A stretch of DNA of 64,000 nucleotides from Octopus sinensis. Taxonomy: Eukaryota. The position numbers and the translations under genes are program-made. Positions 1,016-34,394 of the stretch are shown piece by piece (position 1 is the first letter of the stretch; each line of letters opens with the position of its first letter). The notes under the pieces were generated by a model, which was given only the letters and a program-made list of their open reading frames with translations, had not been told where the DNA came from and ran no database searches. The stretch is from NCBI RefSeq assembly GCF_006345805.1, contig NC_043000.1:153140001-153204000 (forward strand), given 5' to 3'.

Positions 1016-1048
1016 TGTCATGATTAGCGAAAGCGAAATCGGTCGACA
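1016..1048 (+). ncRNA. Degenerate minimal type I hammerhead ribozyme in PLE pseudo-LTR
   Basis: TGTC-ATGATTA-GC-GAAA-GC-GAAA-TCGG-TC-GACA. Stem I is TGTC/GACA, the CTGANGA box carries two substitutions, stem II is 2 bp with a GAAA loop, followed by GAAA, a near-palindromic stem III and a GTC site. It lies about 240 bp downstream of the GIY-YIG ORF. Confidence 0.6.
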
Positions 1049-1256
1049 AACACAATATAAAGTATATTAAAAATATATCAAAACTATGTAAATTCCTTCT
1101 TTTATTTTATGAATATTTTTACATTACGACTCACCACGAGGGAATAATCGAAATTCTCTCCTTTGTGTTTGGGAACAATAGCCATATGAGAATTTACAAT
1201 ATATATATGTGTGTGTGTGTGTGTGTCTGTGTATGTATATATGTATGTATGGCATG

Positions 1257-1319
<63 letters not shown>

Positions 1320-3028
1320 TCAAAATATTCAATGAGAATACAATATACTGAATTAAGAATAAGTGCTCTTCGTAGGGAAACACACACACACACATATATA
1401 TATTTATATACATAGCAGAGATATCTTCGCAAATTATGTTTTCGTGAATTATTTACTCCGTATTAAAATATATACATAGGTATATATATTTCATATATTT
1501 GATATAAAATATTTATAATATACATCCATATGTATGCTCCTACCTTTCTGCACCTGTTTGTGAAATGTTTGCAAATATTATTTGCAAATATGTTTGTGTA
1601 ATATGTTTGTAAATATTATTTCATACTCAGTAATTCTAGATAGAATCCCACATTTTAGACAGAGTAAATATTTATTATATTAGTAATAGTTCCAGCATTC
1701 ACCTACACAGGTTTATTCCCTGGTCCGTGGAGAAATCATACACAGCCCTGGGTTGTTGGATGATTGACTTAGCCGTCGACTTCATATGTCGTGATATGTT
1801 ATGATGTTAACTTACGCTTTCTGGTGCTCACATGATTACGGTCTACAAAAATTCATTTGCGCACGTGATTACGTTTAATATGGTTCAATAATTCTGTTAA
1901 CATTAAACAGGAAATACTTGTTCCCGTGGCAGCATTTAGAAATTAGATTTGTCTTTCTACTGAAGGTGTCTGTTGTATTGACTGGTAAAAATAAAATTCA
2001 CGTTGTCATTGCAGAGGTAGTGATTATATGCACAAGGGGTGCACCTGATTCTGAATTTCAGTATAAATCTCATTGTCTTAAAGGTGTTAACGTTGTTATC
2101 TTTCATATGTCTTAACACAGCTTACCTTCTGCAGAGACGAAATAGGTTTATTAAGAAAAAGGATATCATTTATGTGCTTCGAAAAATATACATACCATAT
2201 TCATGAAAAGAATTTAAAAAATGAAGTATTGACATATTCTTTAAAGACATCATGTCTTGCTGTTCCGTTCCAGGTCATCAAAGATGAGCCAGCTAGAATA
2301 TAAAGAATCTCAATCAGATCACCTATGGCCTTTCTACTGCTGATATCTCAATCTAGCTTTGGGTGCACAGACCCCAAGTTTTGTTACTATTGGAGATAGT
2401 AGGACATCTGGTAAAGTTTTTTGTTTAAGAGTTATTCTGAATTTAGGGCTCTGCCGTATGATGCCAGTTCATTCCTTATTAATAGATTTGGTCCACGACT
2501 TGTGATTCAGATATTTGAAGCGGTCTTGTTTTTTTTTTATATCTGTCATTCAGAGAATGCGCCACTCAGCTGAACCGACACCAGCTGACACAGCATATAA
2601 GATGGTATCCCTGCGTTTTTTTAACGGTAGAGTATGAATTGAGAGAAATTTTACAGCAATTTCTATCAGGTTCAGCGACGACGTACAGACTCCATGAATC
2701 TGGAGATAACTTTCTATTTATGCCAATTTACTAAACAAACCGTATGAGGCTTACGTTAAACTGCTATTGCTTTGCAATCAGATAAACATGTGTGAACTTA
2801 TTCTGCGTCGGGATTGTAACTTCACTGTAATGCACGCTTGCACTGCCAGCAGGAGATTCGAGCTTCGGTTTCACTCGGTAGTTTTGTTGATACTTTTAAC
2901 TTTTGAGGTATTTTTTTCTCTAGAAATTTATACCGATTTGTATTACTCACATAAATATCCTTAAAAACATACATACGTACATGCATAGATGCACGCATTC
3001 ATGCATACATACAGAGAGACATACACAA

Positions 3029-3071
<43 letters not shown>

Positions 3072-3715
3072 TATTTGAGGAAAAGCTTTTCTTTTAAATA
3101 TTTGTAATGAAAAGCACGGCTGTTCTACCTTTATTTTACTAAGATTCTTTCTTGTTTATCAGTTCTTTTTACTCTTCCTAAATCCATTATCGTGTTTAGA
3201 TCTTCACGTCTGGATGGAGTGATTGGTGTTGGTGTGTGTTACTGCTATTCTAAACTGCTGCTTCATGGGACTAGTAGGACTAGTGCATTGCAAGTTTAAA
3301 TTACAGAGCATTGGCCGTTCTCTTTCATTATTCACAAAGTGTTAGTAAGTAATGTACGCTACACTTGTGCAGGTCTAGCATTGTCTTGTGGAATTAGTAT
3401 CACTTCCATTATTAGTCAATCACCTGCCTATGTGAACAATTCTGTATAGAAATGTTGTTTTTTAATGCAGTTATAATTTTCTGGAGTATTAACATCAACT
3501 TTACTGTGATAAAATTGTTTTATATATCTACACTGAATATCGAAGGGTTTGCTCTGTGATTGTCATCAAGTGTTCGTCGAGGAGCACAAAGTGTAAAAAT
3601 GGAATTCTCTACTTTAGAAAGTTAGGTAGAGAACGTGCTTCAGAAAAAGAAAAATTACTAAGATTGAAATATGTCTTAAGTTAACATATTTGTAGCTGAA
3701 ATGATTTATCTAATA

Positions 3716-4091
3716 CTAGCAGTATCGCCCGGCGTTGCTCGGGTTTGTAAGGGAAATAACTATATAAGCATTTTTAGAGAGTTATAGCCAAAAAATAGCA
3801 AACAAAAAAATGGGGAAAAATGATGGTAAATCTTTTTTTAAATCGTTGACTCATCGTAGACATTTTTAGAGAGTTACTTCCCTTATTTAATAGCGAAAAA
3901 ATGCATTAAAATGGAAAAAAAATGATGGTAAATTTTTTTTTAAATCGTAGACTCATCGTAGACGCGCGCTAATACCCAGAAGGGCTCGATATGAATCACG
4001 ACTATAAGATACCCGGTTTTGGTTAAACTGTAGTTAGGAATCTAAATCGTAGGAGACAGACAGCACACAACCTCACTTTTATATATAAAGA
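3716..4091 (-). mobile_element. Non-autonomous Helitron
   Basis: On the minus strand it starts A|TC at 4091 and ends CTAG|T at 3716, with a GC-rich subterminal hairpin (cccggcgttgctcggg, 3728-3743) just before CTAG. No TSD. Contains an internal ~95 bp duplication. Confidence 0.8.
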
Positions 4092-4537
4092 TTAGTAACT
4101 GAAATATTGTTGTTTTTTCCCCAAACGCATAATTATTTCTAATTATGTTTTTCATGCGCACTACATTAAAACTGTTTGTAACTTTATAGCCCCTATGCAT
4201 GTTATTCTTTCAATACACGTCATTTATGGTTTGATTACTTTAAGCAGATATCATCGTTGATATATTCATTGAATTGAATTAGTTCTGTGTTGTTCTATAA
4301 CTTGCTTTACTCACTTTTTAGTATAACCGTTGTCGACTACTTTTGAATCATTGCGTAAAATTCTTCATATAGCATTTCGTTTTTGGGCTAGAATGTAAAT
4401 TTGAATGAAATAAAGATATCACCACCGACATCTTATATCTATGTGGACATTCACTGTCTTCATATAAGTCTAGGTATTTATGACTTTAGTGATATCTCGG
4501 TTATTTTCCAGGTTTATATTTAATGTATTTTTCTTGT

Positions 4538-4928
4538 ATTCTTTTATTTGTTTCACTTATTTGACTGTAGCCATGCTGGAGCACCGCCTTTAGTCGAACA
4601 AATTGACCCCAGGACTTATTGCTTGTAAGCCTAGTACTCATTCTATCGGGTCCTTTTGCCGAACCGCTAAACTACGGGGACGTAAACACACCAGCATCGG
4701 GTGTCAAGTGATGGTGGGGACATACACACATATATACAATGCACACATATATATGCACACACATATATACAAGGGCGTCCTTCAGTCTCCCGTCCGACAA
4801 ATCCACTCACAAGGCTTTGGTCAGCCCGAAGCTATAGTAGAAAACACTTGCCCAAGGTGTTACGCAGTGGGACAGAACCCAGAACCATGTGGTTGGTGAG
4901 CAAGCTACTTACCACGCAGCCACTCCTG
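4538..4928 (-). mobile_element. tRNA-derived SINE family A (CORE-like box, internal microsatellite)
   Basis: Matches other copies: head ggagtggctg.gtggtaagtagctt...gggttc.gtccc, then ccttgggcaagtg, an internal (TA/TG)n and a 3' part ending tgaaaca.gtaaaaga. Confidence 0.85.

Positions 4929-32913: not shown

Positions 32914-32995
<82 letters not shown>
32914..32995. repeat. (TCTA)n microsatellite
   Basis: Direct reading. Confidence 0.95.
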
Positions 32996-32998
<3 letters not shown>

Positions 32999-33059
32999 TT
33001 TTACCGAACCACTAATTTTAGGTTTTAATACGGTGGGTGTAACTGTGCAGTAATTTACT

Positions 33060-33426
33060 CGTTTGTTCCTGTCATCTTCTTTTAATTGCTGTATGATAAG
33101 GCTTCAACTTTAAACTTTTCAACACCCTGCTTATGAGAGATTTCTGCGCCAATTTACGTGTTGACTTCTTTGGACTTTGAGTAATCCCTTGGCGAATGTC
33201 CTGAATAACTTCGACGTTTAGCGTTCGAATGGCAAGGTTTCTTTGTTTTGGGGAGTTGTGCACTGACCCTGTAGCGAGCCACTTCAACCAGCATTTGTAT
33301 CGTTCTCTTTGCCGATAAACCTTTACTCAAAACTTGAGTTCAAAAAATTTCACGCGTTTGTTTAACAGAATCTGATCTCACATGCATTTCTACATTTTCC
33401 ATTCTTTCTGCTTTTGAGTACATCAT
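33060..33426 (-). pseudogene. Tc1/mariner-type transposase N-terminal (HTH) remnant
   Basis: KWLATGSVHNSPK...RTLNVEVIQDIRQGITQSPKKSTRKLAQ...LKLKPY. Typical TGSV...SP.KS.R...L.L.PY pattern. Confidence 0.75.
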
Positions 33427-33653
33427 CTTTCAGAAAAGGCTAGAGATGTTCATACAATCATCTAAAGTGTTGAGGATGCAGTGAGGATAACTTAGCAAAC
33501 AGTCAACTTGTGCACAATCTTTGTTCAGTAGTTACAAGAAGTCGAAATAAACCAACGACACTTGTAAATGAAAGGTTTTGTGCAGTTCTCGAGTGTGTAA
33601 ATTTATTTCTGCCTTAACACCATGCTACAAAACCCGTGCTGCGCTTTTGTAGG

Positions 33654-33708
<55 letters not shown>

Positions 33709-33805
33709 TTAATCCAAACAAGAAAGCACAAAAAAAAACACAAGAACGCGAGGACGTGGAACAAATATAGTATTATTGGACGCTCAGGAAAGATGGAAAG
33801 AAGAA

Positions 33806-33845
33806 GGGCTTAACGTTTCGAGCGGAGCTCCTCGTCGGAAACATA
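33806..33845 (-). ncRNA. Degenerate minimal hammerhead-like motif in a short (TA)n-flanked element (~33705-33922)
   Basis: Minus strand: gttt-CCGACGA-g-GAGC tcc GCTC-GAAA-CG-TTA-agc. 4 bp stem II, palindromic AACGTT stem III, weakened stem I. Confidence 0.5.
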
Positions 33846-34394
33846 GGAGAAGGAAAAATCCAGAGAAAGAAAGACAGAGGGGAAAAAATCGCCAACGGTA
33901 CACACGCGGTCACATTTTGAAATATATATATATGTAAATATATATATCATATGGATAAGAAATTTATTGTTTGATTTTCAATCGGCTACCAAATATCATA
34001 TAGTAAGACTTCTAATACTGGATATACTAGTGGAAATCAGCAACTATCCGTAGAGTATGATCGAACAAAATGTTAAAACGAAAACATGGATTGAACAAGC
34101 TTCATTACTAATCACTACAATTGTTTCATGCGTATGCATACAGCTATTGTTGAATGATATTAATGCAATATTGTGTATAATTCATGTAATATTCAGCAAC
34201 TAGCACCTGATAAAGTTGCGTTGAAACAATTGTTGTTAATGGTAGTGATATGTAATAAAGCTTGTCCAATCGATCTTCTCGTATTAAAATATGTTTCTCT
34301 CTCTCTCTCGTTCTCTCAAAAATGACCGAAACAAGTAAAAGACACACACACACGTGTGTGTGTATGCACGCGCGCGCGCGTGTGTGTGTCCATG

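Follow-up and report, generated by a model that had tools for sequence, protein, structure and literature searches.

The 64,000-nt stretch of Octopus sinensis DNA analysed here, referred to as the window (contig NC_043000.1; C4:153140001-153204000 in our genome searches), is rich in microsatellites and contains, from position 1016 to position 34240, a series of short islands in which hammerhead ribozyme motifs lie beside (TA)n tracts. We conclude, with a probability of about 85%, that these islands are 5′-truncated ends of coding Penelope-like elements (PLEs) together with PLE-moved non-coding hammerhead units, set in (TA)n and mostly of a known kind. One of the non-coding families, named G, appears to carry a hammerhead whose strands are connected in a new order.

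Hammerhead-core-like motifs of different sequence families had been listed at nine sites in the initial annotation of this DNA, and both parts of that claim hold: each site contains hammerhead parts and belongs to a genomic repeat family, and together the nine sites represent eight multi-copy families. By site, these are A (1016), B (28588, with D at 30703), C (28884), E (31150), F (33806), G (29725), H (15330) and I (34105). Repeat searches were made across the whole O. sinensis assembly (2.72 Gb) with eight of the nine sites, 30703 being placed in the 28588 class by BLAST. None of the searched islands proved to be single-copy: each site gave 41–60 matches among the 40 candidates scored, with 135–2151 first-look candidates per site. 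Exact patterns matched the genome 5,002 times for family F, 311 times for C and 136 times for the A core, and the class with a long stem II and a CAATTG loop gave 1,256 matches, compared with two for its control. Many more hammerhead sequence families with a long stem II share this loop, and their position 10.1-11.1 varies (U-U, G-U, G-C).

A type I descriptor permitting covariation at positions 3 and 8, the U4C change and one extra base produced three window matches at a score of at least 10, compared with a mean of 0.025 across 40 dinucleotide shuffles; a stricter first descriptor had overlooked most sites. It was passed by 24/30 copies of B, 20/30 of C, 26/30 of F, 4/25 of E, 6/25 of H and 1/25 of I, with no true match among the A or G copies. 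Family A was missed because its stem II has only 2 bp, the sole feature that fails. Within the range of the islands only 28588 and 33806 pass whole; a further match outside that range, at 56221 (−), has a U3-A8 core, a 5-bp stem II and a 3-bp stem I. An Rfam scan of the window gave 353 matches; none of the 150 listed was a hammerhead, and those listed were microsatellite matches to microRNA models. Cores with a long stem II and cores with an A3-U8 pair illustrate why Rfam and standard descriptors miss many such motifs.

The suspicion that several cores are mutated and possibly dead applies to many copies but not to the families. Among the window copies, the loop-3 palindrome is broken at 1016, position 3 is A at 28884, a mismatch lies low in stem II at 30703, stem I is short or G5 is changed in the 31150 pair, stem I is broken at 15330, and the 5′ blocks are missing at 29725. 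Family-wide, the core reads CTGAAGA in 26/30 copies of B, 27/30 of C and 15/25 of H, ATGATTA in 14/30 of A (14 of the 16 scored, 14 being unscored), TTGAAAA in 13/25 of E (13 of the 19 scored) and CCGACGA in 29/30 of F; the tally for I is 3/25. Positions 3 and 8 therefore pair as C-G, A-U or U-A by family, ATGATTA and TTGAAAA representing compensatory 3-8 pairs and CCGACGA the U4C change. The whole core was kept in 14/30 F and 14/30 C copies of blind samples drawn through the downstream pattern. At family level the cores are mostly intact, and the features of type I PLE hammerheads (paired 3/8, GAAA, UH, stems I and II, a palindromic or paired region III) recur family-wide in A, B/D, C, E, F, H and I, most weakly in I. 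Judged by these cores, many copies are dead and the families are not. Two placements shifted on closer alignment: the motif at 15330-15380 is only a 3′ half, whose CUGAAGA stands at 15251 with a duplicate at 16057, and the one assigned to 34105-34200 belongs to a main copy at 34138-34285 (+), cut just past the first core block and accompanied by an inverted piece.

Read from their other copies, sites 1016, 28588/30703, 31150 and 15330 are 5′-truncated 3′ ends of coding PLEs and not non-coding families. PLE reading frames lie upstream in other copies of four of the eight families, recognized by Pfam in A and B and by eye in E and H, which upholds the link of these hammerheads to PLEs. The idea of several non-coding families stands for the three units C, F and G and finds no support as a general rule: A, B/D, E and H continue into PLE frames. 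Only two sites had been credited with an adjacent open reading frame (ORF) remnant; 28588 is a third, with the last ~35 codons upstream from 27292.

Same-strand upstream ORF matches occur in 15/30 loci of family A, whose loop 3 is palindromic in the family with one change in the window copy, and whose window element stops near 1199, at (TA)n. Translations examined for Neptune-clade membership (family A, loci L251-L264) contain the CX2-5CxxC linker and the CCHH motif. Upstream of family B come ~1.2 kb of non-coding untranslated region (UTR) and then a frame with CxCX5C, GIY-YIG, CxxC and CxH. At locus L470 this frame has 335 aa (GIY-YIG, Pfam E 1e-4) and displays the Hydra-clade combination of CxCX5C with CxxC and CxH beside conserved E and N and no CCHH; the copy stops short of the reverse transcriptase (RT). 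In family H, Hydra-like endonuclease pieces were judged by eye upstream in L180, where Pfam returned no match for the 74-aa endonuclease-like piece; the window copy has a local duplicate at 16021-16229. A GIY-YIG-like frame, likewise read by eye, stands directly upstream of family E in L131 and is common to L129, L134 and L138. The genome also holds open RT+GIY-YIG frames of 775–883 aa, one family being ~98% identical between copies, and a working helper plausibly exists in it. TA runs lie beyond the 3′ end in 14/14 fetched loci with open Neptune-like ORFs. As a separate observation, L251-L264 (e.g. C3:65732500-65739500) are young Neptune-like PLEs with open, ~98% identical 781-aa ORFs and a long repeat-containing 3′ UTR; their relatives carry a U3-A8 hammerhead, and the loci themselves are a candidate active helper.

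For the calling of insertion ends, 220 loci were fetched and 20 were dropped (duplicates, edge cases or no core alignment). Two alternative 3′ ends, 75–95 nt apart in young families, are found in A, B, C, G and H, and no tail was seen in F. In the accessible part of their text, Frangieh et al. tie the PLE “tail” to two internal RT start sites (PMC11167929). Inverted 5′ pieces of the PLE type occur in 54/199 loci, 5′ ends are staggered, and the sequence behind each 3′ end, where known from a longer copy, starts with a TAT- or TATA-like word.

The statement that nearly all motifs adjoin (TA)n was borne out: (TA)4 lies within 200 nt downstream of 9/11 window cores and of 16.5% of random positions. 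At the 3′ ends (TA)4 was present in 134/200 cases, well above the 6.0% background, which was taken from 400 kb at 40 fixed genome places with a 35-nt window. By family it was seen in 27/30 ends of B, 23/30 of C, 27/28 of F and 22/23 of G, and in 27/30 of the blind F sample. At 5′ junctions (TA)4 adjoins 49/145 non-inverted and 29/54 inverted cases. A preference for (TA)n has been published for Neptune, Naiad and Hydra, octopus families included (the accessible text of Craig et al. 2021, PMC8557442).

Whether such elements insert into (TA)n or seed it had been left as an alternative. Seeding would have a short templated TATA end inserted anywhere and then expanded by slippage, which would suit the commoner TA at 3′ ends than at non-inverted 5′ junctions, the expanded internal TA-rich stretch of unit G in the window copy (29530-29597) and the same 5′ TA rate of short interspersed elements (SINEs). 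We nevertheless consider seeding unlikely, since 5′ junctions at arbitrary break points adjoin TA at more than five times the background and published listings give (TA)n as the target of octopus Hydra and Naiad families. Insertion into existing tracts is favoured by the non-inverted 5′ junctions, with a 5′ signal that is shared with SINEs.

Under the insertion reading, Penelope RT-endonuclease proteins likely copy all families. The endonuclease would nick TA tracts, where the nicked strand would prime, and reverse transcription would start inside the RNA at TATA-like words able to pair with the nicked (TA)n target. Incomplete copying would leave solo ribozyme ends, and the palindromic loop 3 would let minimal type I hammerheads cleave in dimeric form. 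This priming proposal differs from the non-homologous priming reported for Poseidon.

A number of results count against the picture of PLE ends and PLE-moved units targeted to (TA)n. The 3′-end TA is weaker in the old families (A 11/26, E 13/25, H 8/24, I 3/14). Heads of tRNA-type SINEs from the random 400 kb (L265-L304) had TA on the 5′ side in 8/24 and 3/10 cases, and because SINE heads adjoin TA as often, the 5′ TA signal is not special to hammerhead elements. The loci of the end-calling set were mostly best matches to the window copy, with ends placed by BLAST and a 35-nt window. Monomer folds of eight sites are weak (z from +1.4 to −2.0), and an autonomous partner is unproven for C, F, G and I. 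In the accessible part of Frangieh et al. 2024, the Poseidon element primed without homology and without needing its hammerhead (PMC11167929). Independently of the hammerhead elements, TA tracts look like general landing or clustering sites in this genome (~30% for SINE heads).

Family G, recorded as one of the weaker motifs at 29725-29772, is the notable one: it fits no type I–III parse, and its cleavage block comes first, followed by the GAAA block and then the CUGAnGA block. A pattern of the last two blocks only has 4,548 exact genome matches, compared with none for the reversed control. The cleavage block, which lay outside the search pattern, pairs with both other blocks in 53/90 loci; with blocks swapped across subfamilies, 150/1474 combinations pass. 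Among 26 aligned copies, both-side changes were found in three of the four variable pairs of stem III and four of the five of stem I, and the seven pairs changed on both sides are 91.5% paired, compared with 30–44% in slid controls. In 53/90 G loci, the strand that precedes GAAA forms 5 bp of Watson-Crick pairing with a partner upstream of the cut. An upstream stem II partner with different letters was found in 11/20 copies of a family with 6,682 matches and in 8/20 of a Naiad-type family, and pairing downstream of CUGAnGA in 0/20 and 1/20, respectively; in all three families the upstream partner is 20–28 nt away from the cut. Core bases are all kept in the three families.

These data point to a rewired hammerhead that is predicted to cut in cis and that begins with the 5′ strand of stem II, followed in turn by the cleavage, GAAA and CUGAnGA blocks. 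CUGAnGA is contiguous, and the backbone is therefore opened between A9 and 10.1, which is where an extra base is tolerated in PLE hammerheads. G might instead be an ordinary type-SGC hammerhead, in which CUGAnGA is immediately followed by the 5′ strand of stem II, or a structure without catalytic activity: its block order and 3-nt linker match type SGC, and four pairs, two G-U pairs among them, are possible between the bases after CUGAnGA and the strand that precedes GAAA. This is improbable, given that the upstream partner, itself outside the search pattern, is conserved in G and covaries in two families that lack downstream pairing, with all core bases kept across families. Tested against type SGC, G shows the S, G, C order with covarying stems I and III but not a stem II 5′ strand directly after CUGAnGA; a plain type-SGC parse, our first reading, was dropped when the upstream partner was found.

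The rewired fold extends beyond G. Read by eye, the 3′ end of the published octopus Naiad consensus, Naiad_Ovul, has the same arrangement, and the motif taken from it has 455 exact matches in the genome; G is likely a non-autonomous Naiad derivative. The 5′ ends of G copies gather at the predicted cut, 14/90 loci falling between −1 and +9, compared with eight in the next 60 nt (p=4e-7), a pile-up that fits a cut RNA template; the window copy begins 2 nt past the predicted cut. The second permuted-hammerhead family (L505-L524), with its 6,682 exact matches, some in tandem ~690 nt apart, has 5/20 copies that begin just past the predicted cut. In L306, L316 and their relatives the stem III extension has an internal loop, AGUA opposite GAA, which we take to resemble a loop E / S-turn motif.

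Four points argue for caution about this ribozyme and its Naiad origin. The covariation counts derive from about six related subfamilies and not from independent lineages; the 5′-end pile-up peaks 5–7 nt past the cut, where RT stalling in the pseudoknot could explain it; type I families show little 5′-end signal (F 2/30, C 5/30 within 19 nt); and none of 20 Naiad-type loci has a PLE-like frame within 1.5 kb upstream. The outer helices around CUGAnGA could not be fixed. Literature searches, to which most subscription papers were out of reach, found no published description of the G fold. From the sequences, we regard it as a new hammerhead variant, well supported by covariation, with predicted cleavage. 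Somewhat more tentatively, we favour the view that G and its relatives (more than 11,000 pattern matches) represent a seventh, active hammerhead topology, whose backbone opening between A9 and stem II places it beyond the six block permutations regarded as possible. It would be the ribozyme that Naiads were reported to lack and would cut in vivo and set the 5′ ends of new insertions; young non-coding hitchhikers, priming on (TA)n via TATA microhomology, would have captured it.

C, F and G are non-coding, retrozyme-like units with PLE insertion signatures, two of them (C and G) in partial tandems; no same-strand PLE frame was found at their best-hit loci. The C and G units are self-closing, the tail behind the hammerhead being the start of the next unit, with tandem periods of 468–477 nt for C (four loci) and 736–825 nt for G (four loci), and C pattern matches occur as same-strand pairs ~470 nt apart. 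The F hammerhead combines the core CCGACGA with an extra base after A9, a 4-bp stem II and no loop 3; its 5′ end is fixed 98–109 nt above the cut in 22/30 blind copies, and the element has no frame and is mostly solo. A parent ORF for F was not found in the three or four loci that reach ~110 nt further upstream, which are still non-coding. No coding link was found among the family I loci, and a candidate ORF link at L197 was rejected, as a SINE and an inverted junction break it. The initial view that all islands are non-coding retrozymes spreading via circular RNA suits the C and G tandem units, the C pairs and the discrete F with its abundant matches, but is very improbable, as A, B/D, E and H continue upstream into PLE frames, which refutes it for A and B, and most copies have one hammerhead. 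Contigs from three guessed-RNA runs and one other run gave cover alone, without ends or informative joints, and were not used as evidence.

The features of the window copies are collected in Table 1.

Table 1. Hammerhead-bearing elements of the window, with positions numbered from its first letter
Feature	Position	Strand	Description
Family A ORF	149..781	+	Broken 3′ part of a Neptune-like PLE (thumb, CX4CxxC linker, GIY-YIG); Pfam GIY-YIG E 9e-6; 65% identity to RT+endonuclease (EN) protein P0001
Family A type I hammerhead	1016..1048	+	Stem I 4 bp, core ATGATTA (A3-U8), 2-bp stem II with GAAA loop, GUC site
Family H, Hydra-like PLE 3′ end	15215..15419, hammerhead 15251-15380	+	~105-nt stem II insert, palindromic CGCGCG loop; stem I damaged here
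Family B, 5′-truncated Hydra-clade PLE	27292..28711	+	Keeps the final ~35 codons, then a long 3′ UTR containing a 257-bp internal repeat, the hammerhead and a short 3′ end that runs into (TA)n
Family B type I hammerhead, whole	28588..28675	+	CTGAAGA, 59-nt stem II with basal U-U, palindromic CAATTG, UA site; descriptor match
Family C, non-coding 468-nt tandem unit	28752..29086	−	Truncated copy 29006-28752 plus inverted tail piece 29008-29086; TA on both sides
Family C hammerhead	28933-28884	−	4-bp stem III; position 3 mutated in window copy
Family G, non-coding 755-825-nt tandem unit with predicted non-circularly permuted hammerhead	29453..29777	−	Keeps part of stem I, stem II 3′ strand, GAAA (29765-29762) and CTGATGA (29736-29730)
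Site D, sister of family B (79% identical)	30684..30904, hammerhead 30703-30788	+	3′ end of the long form, with tail, running into (TA)n; 5′ limit approximate
Family E, back-to-back PLE 3′ ends	31015..31338 (31197-31015 and 31195-31338)	− and +	Minimal hammerhead, U3-A8 core in family; both copies damaged
Family F, non-coding ~215-nt element	33707..33925, hammerhead 33842-33808	−	Fixed 5′ end; minimal hammerhead whole
Family I, old element with long-stem-II CAATTG hammerhead	34067..34285	+	Main copy 34138-34285 without first core block; inverted piece 34128-34067

Elsewhere in the window, positions 15215-16229 form an ~806-nt local duplication that covers the H element and a SINE. By eye, 20056-20703 and 62091-62846 contain what we take to be a restriction-like-endonuclease long interspersed element (LINE) C-terminus and a mariner-type transposase remnant.

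Overall, the system is expected biology, with PLE hammerhead ends in TA repeats and retrozyme-like passengers. A hammerhead that takes stem II from upstream would, if true, extend the known topologies and bring high-copy non-circular permutations to animal genomes, and the same rewired fold would explain the reported lack of hammerheads in Naiads. The TATA-like words at both 3′ ends offer a testable idea for (TA)n targeting.

Among known systems, families B/D, and likely H, resemble the Hydra-clade PLEs, including Hydra-1_Obim, in the accessible text of Craig et al. 2021 (PMC8557442): they share the CxCX5C linker, the C-terminal GIY-YIG, CxxC and CxH, as well as a 3′ hammerhead, (TA)n targets, a tail and inverted copies. 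In contrast to the motif listed for Hydra-1_Obim, which has a short stem II, B and H have stem II inserts of 59–105 nt with U-U or A-G at the base, and are known here without the RT. Neptune-clade PLEs, as described in the available portions of Cervera and de la Pena 2014 (PMC4209133) and Craig 2021, are the counterpart for RT plus GIY-YIG with a CX2-5CxxC linker and mostly solo minimal type I motifs. Their hammerheads share the extra base after A9, a palindromic loop 3 and the U3-A8 variant, a known natural one according to the same part of PMC4209133. Family A departs from these in its A3-U8 pair and its 2-bp stem II, and F in its U4C, variants that may already be described elsewhere.

C and G are alike metazoan non-LTR (long terminal repeat) retrozymes in being non-coding tandem units with one hammerhead per unit (accessible text of Cervera and de la Pena 2020, PMC7229834; Li et al. 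bioRxiv 10.64898/2026.07.22.740005). The same portions of these sources propose that metazoan retrozymes derive from and are moved by PLEs, and report that in axolotl a hammerhead with a basal U-U pair in stem II cleaves. The octopus units differ from the retrozymes described there by mostly 1-1.x-unit insertions, by PLE tail ends and inversions in (TA)n and, for G, by the lack of a type I hammerhead; they are known here from DNA alone.

For the G fold, the nearest relative is type SGC, HRIMA-1 (accessible text of Eckert et al. 2023, PMC10085705), with the same S-G-C order, two pseudoknots, a ~3-nt linker between stems I and II and all core bases. The difference is that in G block S is preceded by the 5′ strand of stem II, which leaves block C split from stem II, a split which that text assumed could not happen. 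The SGC motifs described there come from metatranscriptomes only, whereas the G-type fold occurs in animal DNA. Naiad PLEs (Craig et al. 2021, PMC8557442, in the part available) share the (TA)n targets, and the 3′ end of Naiad_Ovul, flagged there only as “HHR_half_core”, appears to have the same rewired fold; G, a probable Naiad descendant, differs from them in having no ORF and a different stem sequence.

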